32,000 nucleotides of DNA from Moraxella nasovis (GTDB lineage Bacteria > Pseudomonadota > Gammaproteobacteria > Pseudomonadales > Moraxellaceae). The stretch covers positions 1,830,001 to 1,862,000 of the forward strand of contig NZ_CP089976.1 in NCBI RefSeq assembly GCF_022701215.1, given 5' to 3'. Position numbers and translations under genes: made by a program. The notes below the pieces were generated by a model, which was given only the letters and a program-made list of their open reading frames with translations, made no database searches and was not told the origin of the DNA. Of this stretch, positions 2,684-19,040 are shown piece after piece; within the stretch, counting starts at the first letter, position 1; each line of letters starts with the position of its first letter.

Positions 2684-3652
2684 ATGACTGCGTATCAAGC
2701 AAACTACTTTAACTCATCTGATTTAAAAACCATTTTGCATTCTAAGCGTGCTAATATTTACTATTTAGAATATTGCCGAGTTATGCAAAAAGGTGGGCGT
2801 GTGCTGTATCTTACTGAATCTGAAAAGGAAAATCTGTACTACAACATTCCCATAGCCAACACCACGAGTATTTTATTGGGTACAGGCACGTCCATCACCC
2901 AAGCTGCCATGCGAATGCTGTCGCAAGCAGGCGTGCTTGTGGGTTTTTGTGGGGGTGGTGGTACGCCGCTGTTGATGGGAGTGCAAATTGAGTGGCTGAC
3001 CCCACAAAGCGAATATCGCCCAACTCAATATGTGCAAGGGTGGCTGTCTTGGTGGTGGGACGATGACAAACGTTTGCTGATGGCAAAACAGCTTCAAACC
3101 GCACGGCTTGCATTTATGAAAGACGTGTGGGGGCGTGATAAAGACTTGCGACAGTGGGGCTTTGATAGCAAAACTGAGCCAATGACAAGCTTATTAAGCA
3201 ACTACCAAACCCAAGTGCTTAGGCAAAATGGCGTGAATGATTTATTGACCCTAGAAGGGCGAATGACCAAAGAATTATACCGCATTGCATCAGTGAATAC
3301 CAATAATGCTGGTTTTAGCCGTGAACATGATGGTATTGATAAGGCAAATGCTTTTTTGAATCACGGTAATTATTTGGCGTATGGCTTGGGGGCGACCACC
3401 GCTTGGGTGCTTGGCATTCCGCATGGGTTTGCAGTCATGCACGGCAAAACTCGGCGTGGGGCGTTGGTATTTGATATTGCCGATATTGTCAAAGATACGA
3501 TTGTGTTGCCGCTTGCGTTTATTTGTGCGTCCGAAAATGCCACCGAATCAGAATTTCGCCAAGAATGTTTGAATTATTTTACGACTTATCAGGCGTTGGA
3601 TGTGATGTTTGATACGGTAAAAGCGATGGCGTTGAATAAAGAGTGGAGTTAA
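2684..3652 (+). CDS. cas1: CRISPR-associated endonuclease Cas1, subtype I-F
   Basis: 322 aa. SDLKTILHSKRANIYYLEYCRV, IPIANTTSILLGTGTSITQAAMRMLSQAGVLVGFCGGGGTPL, WLTPQSEYRPTQY and HGNYLAYGLGATTAWVLGIPHGFAVMHGKTRRGALVFDIADIVKD are near-identical blocks to P. aeruginosa I-F Cas1. An AGGA SD lies before the ATG. Confidence 0.97.
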   Translation: MTAYQANYFNSSDLKTILHSKRANIYYLEYCRVMQKGGRVLYLTESEKENLYYNIPIANTTSILLGTGTSITQAAMRMLSQAGVLVGFCGGGGTPLLMGVQIEWLTPQSEYRPTQYVQGWLSWWWDDDKRLLMAKQLQTARLAFMKDVWGRDKDLRQWGFDSKTEPMTSLLSNYQTQVLRQNGVNDLLTLEGRMTKELYRIASVNTNNAGFSREHDGIDKANAFLNHGNYLAYGLGATTAWVLGIPHGFAVMHGKTRRGALVFDIADIVKDTIVLPLAFICASENATESEFRQECLNYFTTYQALDVMFDTVKAMALNKEWS

Positions 3653-3664
3653 CAGGGGGTTAAA

Positions 3665-6600
3665 ATGCTAGTTACATTTATCTTGCAATGTGAAAAAAAG
3701 GCATTAAACCGCACTCGGCGGATTTTGGATGCTTTTGCCAATCGGATTGGCGATCATGTGTGGCAAACGGCAATTACTGAAGATGGTTTAAATACCGTCA
3801 AAAAATTATTACGTCAATCTGCGACCAAATCCACAGCGGTGAGCTGTCATCGTGTCCGCACTCGTAAGCGAAGTCAATTGCTATGGGTGGTAGGTAATCG
3901 CAGGCGATTTAATGAACAGGGGGTGGTGGCGGTTAATCGCACTAAACGTAATATTTTAAACAGTGAATGGGAAAATAACTGGCAAAATCTCAACGCCATG
4001 ATGATTGTTAGTACCTTATCAGCATTGTTGCACGATATCGGCAAATCCACTGTAGGTTTTCAACAAAAATTGCTTCACTCTAGCAAATTGGGCGACCCCT
4101 ACCGCCATGAATGGATTTCGTTAAAACTATTGGTTTGGCTCATCAAAGACTGCCAAACGGATAAAGATGTTTTTCATAGACTGCAAAATATTGATGTATT
4201 TTTGGCGACACATCAGCCGACTTTGGCGGATATTCAAGGCAATATCGAAAAGTCAGAATTTGACAAATTGCCAAGCGTTACCCAATGGATAGCATGGCTC
4301 ATTGTCACGCATCACCGCTTACCTTATCTGGCAGGATATTTTTTTAATAGTAAAAAAAACAGAAGAATATCTACAACTTAATCATTTGCATTTTAAACGC
4401 AAAATAGATAGTTATTATAAAAAGTATATTAAGCCATTTGATTATTGGGTCAAAAATCCAAAATCGATTGAAGAAATGACGGATAAACAAAAACAGCAGT
4501 TTTTTAGTTTTGAAAATTTGGTATTAAATAGCCCAGATTGGCAAAAGCAAGTCAAACGCTATGCCAAAAAGGCAGAACAAGACATCGTATTGACTCAATT
4601 TGGCGAGCAAAATCAGGCGATTGCCAATCCTTTTTTTACTCATGCTTTCTCGCATGAGTGTCATGGTTGCCGACCATAATTATTCTAGCTTAAAAGACAA
4701 TCTAGACGATAAAAAACGCCGAGTACAAGGCAGTAAAGACTGGGTAGAAAAATTGGTTGCCAATACCGACCGTAAAACAGGAAAAATTAATCAGCCATTA
4801 GATGAACACTTGCTTGGCGTGGCACGTTTCACCGCAGAATTTTGCCGTAAATTACCAATTTTACACGAAAAATTACCCAGACTGGTTAATCACGAACATT
4901 TGATAAGAAATACGAATGAATCTTTGTTTGCTTGGCAAAACAAAGCCTTTAAATTGGCGTTATCTTTGAGCGAACACAGCGAAACACATGGCTTTTTTGG
5001 GGTTAATATGGCTTCAACAGGCTGTGGCAAAACCATTGGCAATGCTCGAATTATGTATGCTTTGTCCAATCCCAAAAAAGGAGCAAGGCTAACAATTGCC
5101 TTGGGGTTAAGGGTTTTGACATTGCAAACAGGGAAGAGTTTTCGCAAAAATTTGAAGCTAAACGACAGCCAATTGGCGATTTTGGTCGGTGGTTTGGCTC
5201 AAAAGCAATTGTTTGAATACAATCAAAATCAAACCGATGATAATACGCAAATCGATGATGACAATACGTTGTCTAGATTTGGCAATGAATCGGCTGATTG
5301 TTTGATTGATGAATACGTTGATAGCGATAACTTTGACGGTGTTTTGGACGATTTGCAGTTGGATACAGTCATTGAAGATAAATCCGCTTGGCAGTTACTC
5401 GCTTCGCCGATTGTCACTTGTACCATTGACCATCTGATGCAAGCTTGCGAGTGCAAACGTGGGGGCGGATATATCGCTCCGATGCTGCGGTTGTTTAGTG
5501 GTGATTTGATATTAGATGAGCCAGATGATTTTGACCAAAACGATATGCCAGCGTTATCAAGACTTGTGCATTTGGCAGGGCTGTTCGGCTCTCGTGTGCT
5601 GTTGTCGTCTGCGACTTTGCCACCTGATATGCTGTATGGGCTGTTTCAAGCCTATGTGGCAGGGCGAAAAATTTATAATGAACAATTTGGTTATGGCAGT
5701 CCGCACATAAGCTGTGCGTGGTTTGATGAAAATAATGCGATAAGCAAAAACTGTCAAACGCTTGATGATTTTAACCAAACTCATCAAACTTTTATCCAAA
5801 AACGTGGTCAATTTTTGCAAAAACAACCGATAAGACGTATGGCAGAAATTTTGCCAATCAATGCCACTTATCATGGCGAAAAACAAGCCCAATTTTATCA
5901 AGAAATCGCCAAGCAGTTATTAAGCCGTGCCAAAAAATTTCATGATAATCATCATGTGACGGCGAATAATAAGAATGTGAGTGTTGGCTTGATTCGTATG
6001 GCAAATATTCAACCATTGATGAAAATTGCCCAAGCCATGCACCAATTACAAACATTAGATGAAAGTCTTAACCAAAATGCGACAAGTCAAAATGACACGC
6101 ATTTTTACCTGTGTTGTTATCACTCACAACAGGTTTTGGCTTTACGAAATCGTTTAGAAAATCGTCTTGATGGTGTGCTAAATCGCCATCAATTCAATGC
6201 AGACGAATTTGTTAAGCGTCAAGATATTGCCCAATTTATCGCCAAAAACCCCACCAAAACCAATCATGTATTTATTGTGCTTGCTACCCCTGTGGCGGAA
6301 GTGGGGCGTGATCATGATTATGACTGGGCAATGGTTGAGCCAAGTTCGATGCGGTCTATTATTCAGCTTGCAGGGCGTGTATGGCGACACCGAAGTGAGT
6401 TGGTGGCAAGTACGCCAAATATTGGCATTTGGCAATATAATATTAGAGCATTAACAAGCCGAGTGCAACAAAACAGTCAATCTGCGGTATTCAACAAACC
6501 TGGTTTTGAGAGCAAACAATACCTACTTGATACCCATGATATGGCGGAATTGATTGAACCTACTACTTTGCAAAAAATTGATGCCATGAGCCGTATTCAA

Positions 6601-7089
6601 AAACCAACAATGCTCAATCCCAAAACAAGCTTGGTAGATTTAGAACATCAAGTGATGGCAGATTTGATGAATAATTCGCAATTTAATGTGGTCAATGCTT
6701 ATTTCCAAGACAGCCAAACTTCCAATCGTAGCCATGTACATCTAAGTGCATTAACGCCATTTCGGGCAGGACGAGCCAACATTGAATACATCGTCAAACC
6801 TAGCGATGATACGTTTAAGGTGTATCATAGCGAAAGTGTGAAAGAGTACACTTTATACCATGCAAATACGCTAAATAGCGTGATTGAGCCGTATGAAGTG
6901 CCGACCAATAGCCCATTGGTGGATGTGTGGCTTGATAGCCGATTGGATGATGTGTTGGCAGAATTGGAGCAAAAATTCGTGGAATTAAGCTCAAATTCGG
7001 TAGTGATTCGCTTTTCCAATGTCGCCTTAGCCGAACATCAAAGTGGTTATTACTTTGATGAACGCTTTGGCTGTTGGAAAAAGGATTGA
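3665..7089 (+). pseudogene. cas3: Cas2-Cas3 fusion (Cas2/3, subtype I-F) split into three ORFs by two +1 frameshifts
   Basis: ORFs 3665-4381 (frame 2), 4302-4679 (frame 0) and 4600-7089 (frame 1) join into one protein. It has an N-terminal Cas2 domain, HD motifs (LHDIGK, HEW, THHRLP), the linker ...AIANPF|LLMLSRMSVMVADHNYSS, and SF2 helicase motifs: ASTGCGKT (I), LILDEPDDF (II), SSATLP (III), ATPVAEVGRDHDYDW (V) and QLAGRVWRH (VI). The frame changes coincide with T7/A8 (4339-4359) and T7 (4631-4637). Identity confidence is high. Whether it is a true pseudogene or an assembly error is unresolved. Confidence 0.85.
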
Positions 7090-7159
7090 TAAGCCACCTA
7101 TGCGGTGGTAAACACATTTTAAAATCATATAACTTTCTAAGCCACCTGTGCGGTGCAAC
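7086..7159 (-). ncRNA. Degenerate mini-CRISPR (psiR1, 20-nt pseudo-spacer, psiR2); candidate crRNA-like regulatory RNA (CreR/CreA-like)
   Basis: Read on the minus strand: gttgcaccgcacaggtggcttagaaa | gttatatgattttaaaatgt | gtttaccaccgcataggtggcttatcaa. Both flanks are clear derivatives of the array repeat gttYaccaccgtataggtggcttagaaa. The 5' handle cttagaaa and the hairpin stems are retained. psiR2 overlaps the cas2-3 stop codon (7087-7089). Confidence 0.8.
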
Positions 7160-7162
7160 TGC

Positions 7163-7197: not shown

Positions 7198-7219
7198 TAC
7201 TTTTATAATCAAATAACGG
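7198..7219 (+). promoter_or_regulatory. Predicted cas8f (csy operon) promoter -10 region, which is also the PAM-flanked target of the mini-CRISPR pseudo-spacer
   Basis: A perfect TATAAT sits at 7204-7209, 40 nt upstream of the first cas8f ATG. I see no convincing -35, only A/T-rich upstream DNA. The minus strand 7219->7198 reads CC|GTTATTTGATTATAAAAGTA against the pseudo-spacer GTTATATGATTTTAAAATGT. Positions 1-5, 7-11 and 13-17 match. Confidence 0.6.
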
Positions 7220-7248
7220 TTGATTAAAAAAGGCAACTGTGGTTTAAT

Positions 7249-8667
7249 ATGATTAAGTCATCAATGAAGGATAAAAAGTTTATGATAACAAGCATCACTG
7301 AGCGACAAATCAAAGATGCAGTTCAAGCGTTTTTGACGGCTCAATATGACAAAAAGACAGAGAAAGAGCAAAAGCAACTTGCCAAAGCCATTGAAGAGAA
7401 TGATGTGGCAAAAATTGCTGAAATTAATGCCATTTTGCAACCGTTTAAAGATAAATATCAAAAATCAGCTTGGCTCATTGAAGCCAAAAAAATGGCGGAG
7501 CATGTCCAAGTTGGCACACACGTTTCTAAGGGGGTGCATTCTAGTTCTCGTGGTGATAATGTCAATTTTAATCAAGCAGTTGGGCATGATTTTGTTAACA
7601 CAAAAACGATTGAAAGTCGGTTTTTAGATGCTAATAGCCCACGGGGTGCGATTGATTTGCCGTTGGTGTCATTTTTTGAATGGGAAATTGCCGATACAGG
7701 CGTGAAAATGCGTGAAGCGATTTTGCAAAATTCATCTGCGGTGCAAGCCTGTTTTGCCGATGATTTGGACTTATCCAAGCAATTTCAGCAAACTTTTTTG
7801 GATTGCTTAAATAATCAAATCAAGCAACCTAAAACCCACGAAAGCAATAAACAAATTTTATGGGCATTGACACAAGATACTGATAGTGCTGATGATGGTA
7901 ATGGTTATGTGACTCTTGTCCCATTATATCCTGCTGTTCTCGCCCATGAATTTTTTCAAATGGTGAATCAAAAACGGTATTCTGATGAGAATAAATTGGC
8001 TCGTGATAATCGCACCAAAAAAACAGCCAAACAACAGCCGTATTTGACTATGAAAGACATGGCAACCGTTCAACTTGGCGGTACAAAACCACAAAATGTC
8101 AGCCAACTGATGAGCAAGCAAGGCGGACGCAATTATTTATTACCGTCTATGCCACCGATTTTCCGCCAATCGCAAGGCATTCGCCTATCGCCGAATGAAG
8201 CCAGTATCTTTGCCACTAAAGCGTTGGAATACAAAGCAAAAGACGCACTCCAATCCTTATTTAATCTTATCAAAACCAACTACAACAACGTCAATATTCG
8301 TGATGCTCGCAAAGCAATTTTGTCAGACATTGCCTATCAAGTAATTAGCATGGGCGAAACCTTGCAAACGGTACGTTCTGCAGGTTGGTCAAAAGATTAC
8401 CACAATTTATCTATGAACCAAAAATATTGGCTTGACCCAAAACGTGCCGAATTGGACGGAGAGGAAGAATTTAAATTGGCAAGAGAAACTAAAGATTGGC
8501 GGGCAGCGATTGAAGTCGATTTTGCCAATTGGTTGCAAGCAATTTTTAGACGTGAATTTAAAGCGATTGCCCATGACTTTGCCGACCCAGAGCACCTTGA
8601 ATGGCGACGTGAAATGGAAGATGAAATCAAAAAAGCCCTTAGATTGGGTAAAGGAGGTTTGGCATGA
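7249..8667 (+). CDS. csy1: Cas8f / Csy1, large subunit of the type I-F Cascade (Csy complex)
   Basis: 472-aa ORF in the canonical position directly after cas2-3 and before csy2-csy3-cas6f. The call rests mainly on synteny and size. There are three in-frame ATGs (7249, 7264, 7282). Only 7282 has a good SD (GAAGGA 7266-7271), so the true start may be 7282 (MITSITERQIKDAVQAFL...). Confidence 0.85.
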   Translation: MIKSSMKDKKFMITSITERQIKDAVQAFLTAQYDKKTEKEQKQLAKAIEENDVAKIAEINAILQPFKDKYQKSAWLIEAKKMAEHVQVGTHVSKGVHSSSRGDNVNFNQAVGHDFVNTKTIESRFLDANSPRGAIDLPLVSFFEWEIADTGVKMREAILQNSSAVQACFADDLDLSKQFQQTFLDCLNNQIKQPKTHESNKQILWALTQDTDSADDGNGYVTLVPLYPAVLAHEFFQMVNQKRYSDENKLARDNRTKKTAKQQPYLTMKDMATVQLGGTKPQNVSQLMSKQGGRNYLLPSMPPIFRQSQGIRLSPNEASIFATKALEYKAKDALQSLFNLIKTNYNNVNIRDARKAILSDIAYQVISMGETLQTVRSAGWSKDYHNLSMNQKYWLDPKRAELDGEEEFKLARETKDWRAAIEVDFANWLQAIFRREFKAIAHDFADPEHLEWRREMEDEIKKALRLGKGGLA

Positions 8668-9602
8668 GTTTTATTTATTCAAATCTAAGCTGTATCGGTT
8701 ATGTATTGATTAAAAAAATCAAGATTATCAACGCCAATGCCATTTCTAGCCCATTGACTTACGGTTTTCCTGCGATAACGGGCTTTACAGGAGCGGTTCA
8801 TGCGTTGAGCCGAAAAGTGAGCCAAATTGACGGCTTGGACGATGTGCGTTTGGACGGTGTGTTAATCGCTTGCCACGAATGTCAAGTGCAGACCTACCGT
8901 GAAAGCAGTTATAAAGATTTTACCTTTATCCAAACTCGCAATCCGCTCAAAAAAGATGGCAAAACTGCGTCTATCATTGAAGAAGGGCGGTGTCATTTGA
9001 CGGTGTCATTGGTTATTGGCATCTATGCTGACGATTACTTGGAAGATGAACAAGTTGAATTATTAAATAATAAGGTTAAAGATTTAATTCAACAACAACG
9101 TATCGCTGGCGGTAGTGTCATGGGTCTAGATAAATTTGAGCCTGTGAGTTTTCTAGAACAAGAAGATATTTCTAAATTCGTGCCAAAACTATTGCCTGCC
9201 TTTGTTTTGACCGACGCTCACGACAGCCTGCAAGCGATTACCCAACAATTACAAGCCAAAAATCCTAATGCCACCGCTTTGGACGCTTTATTAGAAACCG
9301 CTACGTTGCACCATGTGCCAAACGATGAACACGGCTCAAGCTGGTCGGTAGAAAGCGTCAAAAAAGGACGTGGGTGGCTTGTGCCAATCCCTGTGGGTTA
9401 TCAAGGCATTTCGCCAAAATTTGATGCAGGTCAAATGCAAAATGCTCGCAATAGCGAATACCCAAGCCAATATGTGGAAGCCATTTATAGTTTGGGTAAA
9501 TGGGTATTTCCTTATTCAATAGAAAAACTTGCAACCGCCCTTTGGTATCAACGCTATGATGAAACACAAGATTTATATTTGGTTAGTCATAAATCGGATT
9601 AA
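8664..9602 (+). CDS. csy2: Cas5f / Csy2
   Basis: 312-aa ORF overlapping the csy1 stop by 4 nt (ATGA coupling). Position and size fit I-F Csy2. The call rests on synteny. Confidence 0.85.
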   Translation: MSFIYSNLSCIGYVLIKKIKIINANAISSPLTYGFPAITGFTGAVHALSRKVSQIDGLDDVRLDGVLIACHECQVQTYRESSYKDFTFIQTRNPLKKDGKTASIIEEGRCHLTVSLVIGIYADDYLEDEQVELLNNKVKDLIQQQRIAGGSVMGLDKFEPVSFLEQEDISKFVPKLLPAFVLTDAHDSLQAITQQLQAKNPNATALDALLETATLHHVPNDEHGSSWSVESVKKGRGWLVPIPVGYQGISPKFDAGQMQNARNSEYPSQYVEAIYSLGKWVFPYSIEKLATALWYQRYDETQDLYLVSHKSD

Positions 9603-9669: not shown

Positions 9670-10680
9670 ATGGCAAAAAATGACTTAAAAACCGCATCAG
9701 TCCTTGCTTTTGAGCGTGTACTTGATATTTCGGACGCATTTTTTTGGCAAAAAGACAGTCAAGATAAAGAAAGCAAAACATCCATTGTCACCGTTCAAGA
9801 AAAATCGGTGCGTGGTACGATTAGCAACCGCCTAAAAAATGCGATTGCCAATAACCTTGTCAAATTGGATCCCGAAACACAAAAAGCCAATTTGCAAAAA
9901 GTTGATGCCAGTAGTCTTGATGAAAGCAATGACACATTGGTAGCAAAATTTACTTGCAAGGTGTTGCCATTTACAGGTAAGCCGAATGTGTGTAATGACC
10001 AAGATTACCAACAAGCCTTGATGGCGGTGGTGCAAGATTACCAACAAAATCAAGGCGTGGGCGAACTTGCCAAACGCTATGCGACCAATATTGTCAATGC
10101 TCGTTGGCTGTGGCGAAATCGTGTGGGGGCAGAAACCATCACTGTGATGGTGAGTTTTAACGATGATGCGTTGATGTTTAACGCCAAAGATTTTGCGTTA
10201 AATACCTTTAACCACGATGATAAAGATTTAGCCCAATTAGCTAAATGGATTGAAAGCGGTTTGACAGGCGAAAAATTTGTGATTTTATCGGTTGTCGCTT
10301 ATGCCAAAATCGGCTATGGTCAAGAAGTGTATCCATCACAAGAGCTTATCCTTGATACAGGGAACAAAAAAAGCAAGGTGCTGTACCGTGTTGGCGATGT
10401 TAGTAAAAACCATGCAGGAATGCACTCGCAAAAAGTCAGCAATGCCATCCGCACGATTGATGATTGGTATCCAGATGCTAAGTTTCCGATTGCTGTTGAG
10501 CCGTATGGAGCAGTAACGACTTTGGGAGTAGCGTTCCGCCAACCTAAACAAAAACAAGACTTTTATAGTTTGTTTGATAATTGGGTGCTAAAAGGTGAAG
10601 TCCCAGATATCAATCAACAGCATTATGTCATGGGCGTGTTGATTCGTGGCGGTGTGTTTGGCGAAAGTGGTAAGGAGTAA
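9670..10680 (+). CDS. csy3: Cas7f / Csy3, Cascade backbone subunit
   Basis: 336-aa ORF with an AGGAG SD. Position and size match I-F Csy3 (about 340 aa). Confidence 0.88.
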   Translation: MAKNDLKTASVLAFERVLDISDAFFWQKDSQDKESKTSIVTVQEKSVRGTISNRLKNAIANNLVKLDPETQKANLQKVDASSLDESNDTLVAKFTCKVLPFTGKPNVCNDQDYQQALMAVVQDYQQNQGVGELAKRYATNIVNARWLWRNRVGAETITVMVSFNDDALMFNAKDFALNTFNHDDKDLAQLAKWIESGLTGEKFVILSVVAYAKIGYGQEVYPSQELILDTGNKKSKVLYRVGDVSKNHAGMHSQKVSNAIRTIDDWYPDAKFPIAVEPYGAVTTLGVAFRQPKQKQDFYSLFDNWVLKGEVPDINQQHYVMGVLIRGGVFGESGKE

Positions 10681-11286
10681 GTGATGAATTTCTATCAAGA
10701 AATCACACTGATACCTGATGCTGAAATCTCGCCTTACTTCCTATGGAGTAAGGTGTATCATCAGCTACATATCGCCCTTGCCGATGTCAAAAATAAGCAT
10801 GGCATAGATGGTATTGGGATCAGTTTTCCTAACTATCGTTTTGAGGAAAAAGACGGCAAAACCTTTGCCACGCTTGGCACAAAGTTACGCATTTTTGCCA
10901 ATACCGAAGATGAACTAATAAAGCTTGATGTGAATTATAGGTTGGAGCGATTGACCGACTATGTTCATATCAAGCCAATCCGAGAAGTTGGCAGCCAAGC
11001 AAAAGGCTATGTGGTGGTAAAACGCCATCGCTACAAAAATTTTGACAAACAAGTGGCGAAATTTGCCAAGTTTAAAGGCATAAGTTTGGAAGAATCGCAC
11101 GCCCATTGCCGTGAACACAAGCAACCGATAAAGTATTATCCGTTTATCACCCTAAATAGTGAAACCACCCAACAGCCTTATCAACTGTCTATTTGGCAAG
11201 AAGCGGTGGATTCGCCTGTGGCAGGAAAGTTTAATACATATGGACTAAATAGCCTATCGGGCAGCGTAACTGTACCGCATTGGTAA
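10681..11286 (+). CDS. cas6f: Cas6f / Csy4 crRNA endoribonuclease
   Basis: It aligns by eye with P. aeruginosa Csy4: YQEITLIPDAE~YLDIRLRPDPE, IGISFP~IGVSFP, LRIFA~LRIHA, PFITLNSETTQQPYQLSI~PFVTLRSQSTGQHFRLFI, and C-terminal GKFNTYGLNS...VPHW~GGFTCYGLSKGGFVPWF. The track start at 10681 is GTG. ATG 10684 is better placed after the AAGGAG at 10672-10677. Confidence 0.95.
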   Translation: MMNFYQEITLIPDAEISPYFLWSKVYHQLHIALADVKNKHGIDGIGISFPNYRFEEKDGKTFATLGTKLRIFANTEDELIKLDVNYRLERLTDYVHIKPIREVGSQAKGYVVVKRHRYKNFDKQVAKFAKFKGISLEESHAHCREHKQPIKYYPFITLNSETTQQPYQLSIWQEAVDSPVAGKFNTYGLNSLSGSVTVPHW

Positions 11287-11458: not shown

Positions 11459-13829
11459 GTTCACCACCGTATAGGTGGCTTAGAAAATTGACACACAGGG
11501 CAATGACGGACATGGCAGGTTCACCACCGTATAGGTGGCTTAGAAACGTCTGATTTGCTCTCTGGTGGCGTTTTAGATAGTTCACCACCGTATAGGTGGC
11601 TTAGAAATTACCGCCAAAAAATTGCCCCATAAACGAGCTTGTTCACCACCGTATAGGTGGCTTAGAAAAGATTAGCAAACTTGCCAAACAAGCAGGGATT
11701 GTTCACCACCGTATAGGTGGCTTAGAAATATTTGGGGCATGACTCATACGTTCAACGTATGTTCACCACCGTATAGGTGGCTTAGAAAATACACCACGCC
11801 CATACGCAACGCCATACACCGTTCACCACCGTATAGGTGGCTTAGAAACCCAAGTGTCAAGGTAGTATTTTGGGCTTCGCGTTCACCACCGTATAGGTGG
11901 CTTAGAAACCAAATTTAACCAATGAATTTTCTGACCCTGCTGTTCACCACCGTATAGGTGGCTTAGAAACTTACGCAGGGGGGGGGATTTTTAGGCTATC
12001 GTTCACCACCGTATAGGTGGCTTAGAAAACCAAAAAGCGTAAGCCCTTCACTTGGCGGAAGTTCACCACCGTATAGGTGGCTTAGAAATTGACACTCGGA
12101 AGTGGTGTGATAAAAAAAATGTTCACCACCGTATAGGTGGCTTAGAAAGATAGCAAATGTTCTAAAATCATTTGCTTTTTGTTCACCACCGTATAGGTGG
12201 CTTAGAAATGTGGTGAGTGCGGTTTCAATTGTTTGTAAGAGTTCACCACCGTATAGGTGGCTTAGAAAGTTCATAGCGTACCGCCTTATTGCCCCTGTCA
12301 GTTCACCACCGTATAGGTGGCTTAGAAAAATTAAACACAAGCTAAACATTAAACCCATTTGTTCACCACCGTATAGGTGGCTTAGAAACAATTGCCCTAG
12401 AACGCAGAAAGCAGGACGAGGTTCACCACCGTATAGGTGGCTTAGAAACTAATGTATAAATACAAGTAGAAACCCCCCAGTTTACCACCGTATAGGTGGC
12501 TTAGAAATGCATGAATGGCGGTATGTAGCAATTTTACCCGTTTACCACCGTATAGGTGGCTTAGAAATACTGCACGATTAAGCACGGTTGAGCGATAACG
12601 TTTACCACCGTATAGGTGGCTTAGAAAGTCCCTTGTGCGTTCTGAATACATTAAGTGCAGTTTACCACCGTATAGGTGGCTTAGAAAAAATAAAGTCAGT
12701 GAAATCAAGGGTTTGTAGAGTTTACCACCGTATAGGTGGCTTAGAAAGGTACTATATGCTTTTGAAAGTTTTGCTTTAGGTTCACCACCGTATAGGTGGC
12801 TTAGAAAGCCCATGCCAAATGCGGCATCTTATTGATTTTGTTCACCACCGTATAGGTGGCTTAGAAAAAAGAGGAAACCATTATGGCAAAGTTCACCAAG
12901 TTCACCACCGTATAGGTGGCTTAGAAACGCTTTTTTGCTGTTTTTCGCCCGCCGCGTCGCGTTCACCACCGTATAGGTGGCTTAGAAATATAATAATGCT
13001 GTACTATCAACAACAAAACAGTTTACCACCGTATAGGTGGCTTAGAAATGATTTTATATCTTCATCAGTCATTGGCTCGCGTTTACCACCGTATAGGTGG
13101 CTTAGAAAATGCTTTTTTGACGCTGTCTGACTGAGTGTTAGTTTACCACCGTATAGGTGGCTTAGAAAATGCTTTTTTGACGCTGTCTGACTGAGTGTTA
13201 GTTTACCACCGTATAGGTGGCTTAGAAACCAACGTGCGTTTAATTTTGTCAATGTTCATTTGTTTACCACCGTATAGGTGGCTTAGAAAATACTGCACCA
13301 ACACCTGAGCAGATGAAACAGGTTTACCACCGTATAGGTGGCTTAGAAAACTTGGCGAACATGGCAGGGTCAGGACAATATGTTTACCACCGTATAGGTG
13401 GCTTAGAAAATCATGTGCGTTTCTATGACTTTTTTTGACTGGTTTACCACCGTATAGGTGGCTTAGAAATTAAAATTAGAGCGTGAACGTCAAATCAAAC
13501 AGTTTACCACCGTATAGGTGGCTTAGAAAATTGAATCAACAAGATTTCTAGCAGATGGGTTGTTCACCACCGTATAGGTGGCTTAGAAATTCAGTAAACA
13601 CTCAACTTTTTACACTAACTGGTTCACCACCGTATAGGTGGCTTAGAAAATGATTTGTTTAACAATACCGTTTGGCACACTGTTCACCACCGTATAGGTG
13701 GCTTAGAAATTCAATGTATTTAGCAGACTGCGTAAAGCGTTGTTCACCACCGCATAGGTGGCTTAGAAAAGATGATTTAAGGTGGTGTTATGAGCAACAA
13801 TGTTCACCACCGCATAGGTGGCTTAGAAA
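11459..13829 (+). CRISPR. Type I-F CRISPR array with 40 repeats of 28 nt and 39 spacers (38 unique)
   Basis: The repeat is gttcaccaccgtataggtggcttagaaa, the I-F family (compare P. aeruginosa GTTCACTGCCGTATAGGCAGCTAAGAAA). The unit period is 60 nt and spacers are 31-33 nt. Repeat starts: 11459, 11519, 11580, 11641, 11701, 11761, 11821, 11881, 11942, 12001 ... 13742, 13802. The variants are gttC (R1-17, 23-26, 36-38), gttT (R18-22, 27-35) and gttC with t12c (R39-40). Confidence 0.99.

Positions 13830-18926: not shown

Positions 18927-19040
<114 letters not shown>

Follow-up and report, generated by a model that had tools for sequence, protein, structure and literature searches.

A mini-array beside cas8f of Moraxella nasovis probably guides autorepression of a type I-F1 CRISPR-Cas operon

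The chromosome of Moraxella nasovis carries a type I-F1 locus of CRISPR repeats and their associated Cas genes within the stretch analyzed here, a 32-kb window of contig NZ_CP089976.1 (32,000 nucleotides; all positions are counted from its first letter). On the minus strand of this locus, between the stop codon of cas2-3 and cas8f, lies a two-repeat mini-array composed of a degenerate upstream repeat (psiR1), a 20-nt pseudo-spacer (psiS), and a downstream repeat (psiR2). The Csy complex loaded with the RNA of this mini-array very probably binds a site flanked by a protospacer adjacent motif (PAM) at the cas8f promoter and represses its own operon. A model reading of the DNA made without database searches (the sequence-only reading) had proposed such autorepression, in the manner of the CreR elements and without cleavage, and the proposal is now strongly supported by the covariation of guide and target in related loci and by published work on the same class of elements. 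The coordinates of the locus are collected in Table 1.

The plus strand at 7198-7219 reads TACTTTTATAATCAAATAACGG, and its reverse complement is CC GTTATTTGATTATAAAAGTA. On this minus strand, the target and the pseudo-spacer are identical at positions 1-5, 7-11, and 13-17 and differ at 6, 12, and 18-20, and the type I-F PAM, 5'-CC, directly precedes the match. These features had been recognized by the sequence-only reading, as had a TATAAT hexamer at 7204-7209 of the plus strand, inside the paired segment, and all of them stand. The same reading had found no other ccgttat seed, which was an oversight: one more CCGTTAT lies on the minus strand inside csy2 (8781->8760). This is the next-best CC-flanked site in the window, but it shares the 5-nt seed only (8/20 positions in total) and is almost certainly a product of chance. 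A further caution, that two A/T-rich sequences may resemble each other fortuitously, does not explain the match at cas8f. When 20,000 composition-preserving shuffles of psiS were compared with the 2,730 CC-flanked sites of the window, a single shuffle reached 15/15 non-sixth positions anywhere in it, and about 3e-7 such matches are expected in the 120-nt intergenic region, given its five CC sites and its local A/T-rich composition. The match between guide and target is thus non-random.

The relation between guide and target was then followed through related loci. Alignment of Cas8f yielded 78 loci from species-representative genomes (numbered with the prefix L; the M. nasovis contig itself is not among them), to which four metagenomic contigs were added as closer relatives. 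A minus-strand mini-array upstream of cas8f was present in about 28 loci, comprising roughly 24 of the 78 genome loci and all four metagenomic contigs, from Moraxella, Psychrobacter, Acinetobacter, and Endozoicomonas. The repeat spacing in these relatives is mostly 48 nt, hence a psiS of 20 nt, and the pseudo-spacers vary from locus to locus, almost every one of them having a CC-flanked partial match nearby. In eight Moraxella-clade relatives (L001, M. osloensis; L002; L003; L004, M. oculi; and L084-L087), the target occupies the homologous place, and where the distance from the PAM to the start of cas8f was measured, it is about 62 nt. The guide/target pairs are GTTATATGATTTTAAAATGT / GTTATTTGATTATAAAAGTA in M. 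nasovis, ACTGTTTTATTTTAAAAAAT / ACTGTATTATTTTAATAGGA in M. osloensis, ATAATTTGGTTTTAAAAAAT / ATAATGTGGTTCTAAAAGCT in L002, and ATTACGTTACCGTAAACAATA / ATTACTTTACCTTAAATATGT in L003. In an initial comparison of five Moraxella-clade loci, 14-15 of the 15 non-sixth positions match in cognate pairs and 8-12 in non-cognate ones. The M. osloensis locus has the same architecture as that of M. nasovis, at the same coordinates relative to cas8f, but the pairs of the two species differ, with cross-matches at 10-11/15 positions.

For a covariation test, guide and target strand of each locus were fused into an artificial hairpin, and the pairs were counted over 23 loci. Paired cells amounted to 86.1%, as compared to 56.6 +/- 1.7% in column shuffles, and the covariation score was 0.742, as compared to 0.207; neither value was reached by any of 500 shuffles. 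When the register was slid by 1-3 columns, 32-53% of the cells were paired and the score was 0.12-0.15. Both sides change at 19 of the 20 guide-target positions. The comparison across related I-F loci that the sequence-only reading had suggested as a check therefore came out in its favor.

The cells that remain unpaired are concentrated at positions 6 (8 cells), 12 (10), 18 (13), 19 (9), and 20 (9), with 0-3 at each position elsewhere. It is an established structural feature of type I complexes, also referred to in Shmakov et al. 2023 (PMC10120712), that each sixth base of the guide is flipped out and not read. The spacing of the unpaired cells thus provides independent evidence for an RNA that acts from within the Csy complex. 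At positions 6 and 12, the guide often has G where the protospacer has A (six G-U cells at position 6 and seven at position 12; L085, L086, L032, L074, L084, and L087 are among the loci concerned), the target side staying A/T, and thus the apparent mismatch is often an rG:dT wobble. The target may be constrained also as promoter or UP-element DNA, with the guide free at positions 6 and 12.

At the sequence level, the mini-array contains the features for Cas6f processing and Csy loading, namely a 5' handle and a 3' hairpin. In psiR2, which has the GTTTACC variant of the repeat, the Cas6f hairpin is complete, with a 5-bp stem, a 5-nt loop, and a folding energy of -8.6 kcal/mol, equal to that of the array repeat; the 3' tail of psiR2, which is degenerate, runs over the stop codon of cas2-3 (7087-7089). 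The eight mismatches of psiR1 all fall in its 5' part or loop. Its 8-nt 5' handle, CTTAGAAA (7141->7134), is kept and is identical to the handle of the array repeat, and its hairpin is cut down to 4 bp (-5.6 kcal/mol). The spacing from psiR1 to psiR2 is 48 nt, giving the 20-nt psiS. By the established rules of I-F processing, Cas6f cuts at the hairpins and a normal CRISPR RNA (crRNA) measures 60 nt; the mature RNA of the mini-array is predicted, by analogy, to extend over 48 nt (7141->7094), comprising the 8-nt handle, the 20-nt guide, and a 20-nt hairpin. Neither psiR (7086-7161) was hit in Rfam at the gathering score; the only Rfam hits in the window are the 40 repeats of the main array (CRISPR-DR4) and a signal recognition particle (SRP) RNA. 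The element is not a canonical CRISPR array, as it has a single 20-nt spacer that matches its host's own locus, in place of units with ~32-nt spacers taken from invaders. In some Psychrobacter loci, three repeats stand at this place (L019, 3762-3870; L059, 3754-3862), with a normal 32-nt spacer ahead of the 20-nt regulatory spacer; this arrangement appears to stand midway between a second array and a mini-array.

The target adjoins a promoter-like sequence that is conserved in the relatives. In the orthologues, GG is followed by TTGAnn or TTTACT, 17 nt containing a TG, and TTTAAT or TTAAAT, and the spacer sequences themselves have diverged. The strict pattern GGTT[GT]ANN-N14-TGN-T[TA][TA]AAT has 19 matches on both strands of 1.45 Mb of related loci, and all 19 are located at the PAM upstream of cas8f or of a cargo gene. 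The same GG/-35/TG/-10 module is found upstream of cas8f in L024 (~2393) and L052 (~3931); the fetched stretches of these two loci yielded no main-array repeat, so that repeat-based detection of a mini-array is inapplicable to them. They may possess the target without a guide, as do the hosts of prophage mimics described by Shmakov et al. In M. nasovis, the predicted cas8f promoter has an extended -10 TG at 7240-7241 (TGgTTTAAT, 7240-7248). Its predicted transcription start site (TSS) is at about 7255, which would leave a 5' untranslated region (UTR) of about 27 nt holding the Shine-Dalgarno (SD) sequence AAGGA before ATG 7282.

This geometry bears on the start of cas8f. An ATG at 7249 is in frame with cas8f, with no stop in between, but it is not conserved in orthologues and is ruled out as the start by the lengths of homologues and by N-terminal alignment. 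The database entry for Csy1 of Moraxella nasovis, to which the protein encoded here is 100% identical, has 461 amino acids (aa), and homologues have 450-462 aa, so the likely start is ATG 7282. A TSS near 7255 would place ATG 7249 outside the transcript, consistent with the 461-aa protein and the homologue lengths. Therefore, the distance of 40 nt given between the TATAAT and the first cas8f ATG holds for ATG 7249 but not for the start that is probably used. From the PAM to ATG 7282 there are 62 nt, 29 of which are promoter. Because the conserved promoter adjoins the PAM, the target lies directly upstream of the -35 hexamer; relative to a TSS at about 7255, the protospacer would be at about -57 to -38 and the PAM at -37/-36. 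The Csy complex would thus sit on the UP-element region, with its PAM-recognizing end against the -35. It follows that a TSS mapping elsewhere, for example from the taatat at 7245-7250, would not refute the regulation, contrary to what the sequence-only reading had held. The P. aeruginosa CreTA modules offer a precedent: their mapped -35 is about 30 bp downstream of the target, and repression is exerted from that upstream site (10.64898/2026.06.02.729485).

A second promoter-like sequence, predicted to drive the mini-array (creR), points away from the first. It matches the consensus at 10/12 positions, and in eight Moraxella-clade loci TTGAnA-16/17-TAAAAT recurs at an unvarying distance of 28 nt from the PAM. 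The predicted creR TSS, at about 7156, is inside psiR1 just before its hairpin, and a transcript starting there would account for the degeneracy of the 5' part of psiR1. The two -35 hexamers stand back to back with a 28-bp gap between them, and of this gap only 6 bp are left free by the PAM and the 20-nt protospacer.

The same autorepression could instead act on a cas8f promoter that uses the TATAAT at 7204-7209, with a TSS at about 7216 and an R-loop that would melt or occlude the -10 or act as a roadblock right at the start site. This arrangement, which is close to the one first proposed, seems rather unlikely to us. In its favor are the perfect hexamer inside the paired segment, the TAnnnT hexamers inside the A/T-rich targets of several orthologues, and the mapped TSS of the CreTA module of Acinetobacter sp. 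WCHA45, which is upstream of the target (PMC10097628). However, the hexamer has no -35 within 16-18 nt and is absent from that place in L002 and L003, A/T-rich DNA yields -10-like hexamers by chance, and it is the downstream TTGAnn-17-TGnTTTAAT that is conserved in 19 loci. A consensus scan made no call for a promoter with TATAAT 7204-7209. Its sole call on the plus strand was TTAAAA-18-TATGAT (7224-7253), which overlaps the conserved promoter at an offset of 4-5 nt; the scan demands A at position 2 of the -10 and so cannot call TTTAAT. The sequence-only reading was right that the TATAAT lacks a -35, but a conserved -35, TTGATT, exists immediately downstream of the PAM, and the claim that the paired segment covers the cas8f -10 is probably wrong, since the TATAAT is not positionally conserved.

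Autorepression from upstream of the -35 would, by analogy to homologous I-F mini-arrays, involve the following steps. The mini-array would be transcribed from its own promoter, antisense to cas2-3, and Cas6f would cut at both repeat hairpins to release an RNA of about 48 nt (CUUAGAAA, the 20-nt guide, and a hairpin). Together with Cas8f, Cas5f, Cas7f, and Cas6f, this RNA would form a Csy complex of reduced length; the csy operon would accordingly be both the regulated operon and the source of the proteins that carry the mini-array RNA. The complex would read the CC PAM (7219-7218) and open an R-loop of about 17 bp over 7217-7201. Since pairing and guide are short, Cas2-3 would not be licensed to cut, and the bound complex, touching the -35 from upstream, would block the loading of RNA polymerase. 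Such an arrangement would constitute a negative feedback in which a fall in free Csy complex, caused by anti-CRISPRs or by many competing crRNAs such as those of the main array, would release the promoter. As the target is 6 bp from the creR -35, the same complex may also damp creR.

Several points weigh against this interpretation. Both promoters of the locus are predictions from sequence, and the psiR1 hairpin of only 4 bp makes the efficiency of processing uncertain. WCHA45, which has the only mapped I-F TSS in the close family, has that TSS upstream of the target, and a roadblock to transcription starting at a promoter that lies upstream of the target or within it, for instance the TATAAT at 7204-7209, would by that analogy be possible. 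In the covariation test, targets had first been picked as the best CC-flanked match within about 1.5 kb, which inflates the pairing somewhat; nearly all of those picked fell at the homologous, independently recognizable position. Finally, a P. aeruginosa mini-array described as an 'autoregulator' appears since to have been reinterpreted as the guard of a tiny RNA toxin (10.64898/2026.06.02.729485), which warns against calling such an element toxin-free from sequence alone.

The last point raises the question of whether the mini-array RNA might be the antitoxin (CreA) of a CreTA addiction module, silencing a small toxin between the target and cas8f such that loss of Csy kills the cell, an alternative that the sequence-only reading had kept beside autorepression. 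Published I-F modules of this kind reside in the same cas3-csy1 intergenic region with a 20-nt psiS (PMC10097628), their toxins can be tiny (an SD, a 15-nt open reading frame (ORF), and a hairpin), and the M. nasovis locus does have a CreA-like mini-array with a PAM-flanked partial target. Known I-F toxins consist either of an SD, a mini-ORF of 15-33 nt, and a hairpin or of a small protein, CreP, with a KilAC domain. However, a 5' UTR of only about 27 nt separates the predicted TSS from cas8f, whereas known modules need intergenic regions of about 400 bp. A search of 7220-7300 revealed no SD with mini-ORF and stop and no GC-rich or stable hairpin (the fold of 7255-7290 is -2.5 kcal/mol), and the orthologues have no conserved ORF between target and cas8f. 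As the locus has neither space for a toxin nor any feature resembling one, an addiction module is disfavored, and we regard it as very improbable in M. nasovis.

Related loci with long intergenic regions do place a gene behind the same regulated promoter. In five of them, the Psychrobacter loci L011, L012, L053, and L066 and the Acinetobacter metagenome-assembled genome locus L021, about 420-450 nt lie between the module and cas8f and contain a gene for a 77-aa DUF2188 protein (Pfam E 5e-21 to 9e-23), with a hairpin behind it. This gene is at ~3680-3915 in L011, L012, and L066, ~3672-3905 in L021, and ~3640-3870 in L053. The regulated module is therefore common to toxin-free and cargo-bearing versions. 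The cargo is not the published CreP, which is a KilAC-domain protein, and no paper linking DUF2188 to CRISPR mini-arrays or CRISPR-repressed toxins was found; from its sequence, the DUF2188 protein is a candidate for a new CRISPR-repressed cargo or toxin. We tentatively consider a wider scheme, doubtful as a whole, in which one Csy-CreR complex represses both the effector operon and its own guide, fixing the ratio of guide to protein, and in which the PAM/-35 module is a Moraxellaceae socket where repeated insertion of cargo turns CreR into a CreTA-like guard.

Two further explanations fare no better. The main targets of the RNA could be promoters outside the CRISPR locus, as in host regulation by the Francisella scaRNA, with the local site being secondary. 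Short seeds permit many sites, the search made here covered the 32-kb window, and Shmakov et al. themselves leave room for other targets; however, the next-best CC-flanked site in the window shares nothing beyond its seed, and guide and local site covary in every lineage, which would be hard to maintain otherwise, so that primarily distant targets are highly improbable. That the mini-array is a non-functional relic of a second array, resembling a nearby sequence without any role, is scarcely credible: psiR1 is degenerate, guide and target are both A/T-rich, and full or three-repeat arrays sometimes occur at this place in related loci (according to passages of PMC10120712), but the chance probability of the match is very low, in many lineages guide and target have changed in concert with pairing kept, the mismatches fall at positions that Cascade does not read, and PAM and geometry are conserved.

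Autorepression by a toxin-free mini-array accords with several described systems. The architecture itself has already been described for type I-F1, M. osloensis included: Shmakov et al. report mini-arrays that lie between cas3 and cas8 in antisense orientation to cas3 and have a CC PAM, sixth-position mismatches, and targets in the cas8 promoter region; repression there depends on Cascade and the RNA, does not require Cas3, and is accompanied by no plasmid restriction; examples from Acinetobacter and M. osloensis and copies in prophages are described there as well. The element in M. nasovis shares with them the subtype, the position, the antisense orientation, two repeat-like units of which one is degraded, the short spacer, the CC PAM, the PAM-proximal pairing with mismatches at sixth positions, and the location of the target in a predicted cas8 promoter region. 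The abutment of PAM and -35 and the back-to-back creR promoter were not found in the passages of that paper that were searched, and no paper mentioning the element in M. nasovis was found. What the present analysis contributes is the test for covariation, a revised geometry of the predicted cas8f promoter, and the finding of the target sandwiched between two predicted divergent promoters.

CreR is the name given to toxin-free elements that sense crRNA load and anti-CRISPRs (Liu et al. 2023, 10.1101/2023.03.10.532045). The M. nasovis element has in common with CreR a stand-alone degenerate mini-CRISPR without toxin, a guide partly complementary to the effector promoter, and the predicted outcome, an autorepression that would respond to the same two signals. 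CreR has been validated experimentally in types I-B, I-E, and V-A, I-F being only listed (Figure S7 of that work), whereas the M. nasovis locus is known from its sequence. The CreTA modules of WCHA45 and P. aeruginosa (CreTA1/2) share the cas3-csy1 location, the CC PAM, and the unpaired 6th and 12th positions, and they exert the Csy-dependent transcriptional repression that we predict here by analogy. Like M. nasovis, WCHA45 has in addition a 20-nt psiS with 17 pairs, which in WCHA45 was validated by compensatory mutations (PMC10097628); P. aeruginosa has a target upstream of the mapped -35. Both differ in having a toxin (SD, mini-ORF, and hairpin) between target and csy1, where M. nasovis has the promoter and then cas8f directly, and in their much longer intergenic regions (~400 bp in WCHA45). 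In P. aeruginosa, the I-F mini-arrays are reported in a 2026 preprint to guard a proline-codon RNA toxin (10.64898/2026.06.02.729485). The viral Cracr RNAs are phage mimics of CreR and CreA, with a reported median psiS of 19 nt as compared to 25 nt in bacteria (10.1101/2024.10.29.618823). Elements of that type reside on phages, prophages, or plasmids, frequently beside acr genes. The mini-array form and the short psiS (20 nt) are shared with these, but the M. nasovis element is chromosomal and inside the cas operon, between cas2-3 and cas8f and among housekeeping neighbors, and is not a viral Cracr or anti-CRISPR mini-array; the five IMG/VR matches to CTTAGAAAGTTATNTGATT all lack repeat hairpins and are due to chance, and no phage copy of psiS was found in that database.

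Table 1 Features of the type I-F1 locus and its mini-array in the M. nasovis window.
Feature	Position	Strand	Remarks
cas1f	2684-3652	+	
cas2-3f	3665-7089	+	Read in three frames, shifts at homopolymer runs
psiR2, downstream repeat	7113->7086	-	GTTTACCACCGCATAGGTGGCTTATCAA; 4 mismatches to array repeat
psiS, 20-nt pseudo-spacer	7133->7114	-	GTTATATGATTTTAAAATGT
psiR1, upstream degenerate repeat	7161->7134	-	CAGTTGCACCGCACAGGTGGCTTAGAAA; 8 mismatches to array repeat
Predicted creR promoter	7191->7163	-	-35 TTGAAA 7191->7186, 17 nt, -10 TAAAAT 7168->7163
Protospacer-like target, non-target strand	7198-7217	-	GTTATTTGATTATAAAAGTA; pairs with psiS
Type I-F PAM, 5'-CC on non-target strand (GG on +)	7218-7219	-	Adjoins cas8f -35 hexamer
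Predicted cas8f-operon promoter	7220-7248	+	-35 TTGATT 7220-7225, 17-nt spacer, -10 TTTAAT 7243-7248
cas8f (csy1)	ORF from 7249, likely start ATG 7282, end 8667	+	SD AAGGA 7267-7271
cas5f (csy2)	8664-9602	+	Intact
cas7f (csy3)	9670-10680	+	Intact
cas6f (csy4)	10681-11286	+	Intact
Main CRISPR array	11459-13829	+	40 repeats GTT[C/T]ACCACCGTATAGGTGGCTTAGAAA, ~32-nt spacers

All four csy genes are intact. The cas2-3f frame is shifted, relative to the intact 1124-aa protein of M. osloensis, at an A8/T7 region (4339-4360) and at a T7 run (4631-4637), which may reflect sequencing or assembly error, phase variation, or real inactivation (a pseudogene). If the frameshifts are real, the system could bind DNA without cutting; they leave the proposed regulation unaffected because this needs only the Csy proteins. 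The main array is a mosaic of blocks with either the GTTCACC... or the GTTTACC... variant of the repeat, which suggests internal recombination or duplication, and a spacer is duplicated at 13081-13200, where two neighboring repeat-spacer units are 100% identical. Housekeeping genes flank the locus (ampG, zapE, gpsA, rpiA, argD, and hrpA), and the bacterial small SRP RNA is located between gpsA and rpiA (18938-19034, plus strand; Rfam RF00169, 68.7 bits).

The M. nasovis element changes no concept. It adds a compact I-F example of probable Cas autorepression without a detectable toxin. In this subtype, the one 'autoregulator' tested experimentally (P. aeruginosa mini-arrays of the type tested in strain YL84) seems since to have been reassigned as the guard of a toxin. 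The Moraxella loci supply naturally orthogonal guide/target pairs, and a PAM touching the -35, together with a divergent guide promoter 28 bp away, leads to clear predictions for how Cascade would block RNA polymerase from upstream. Elements of this kind determine the strength of native I-F expression and its response to anti-CRISPRs.

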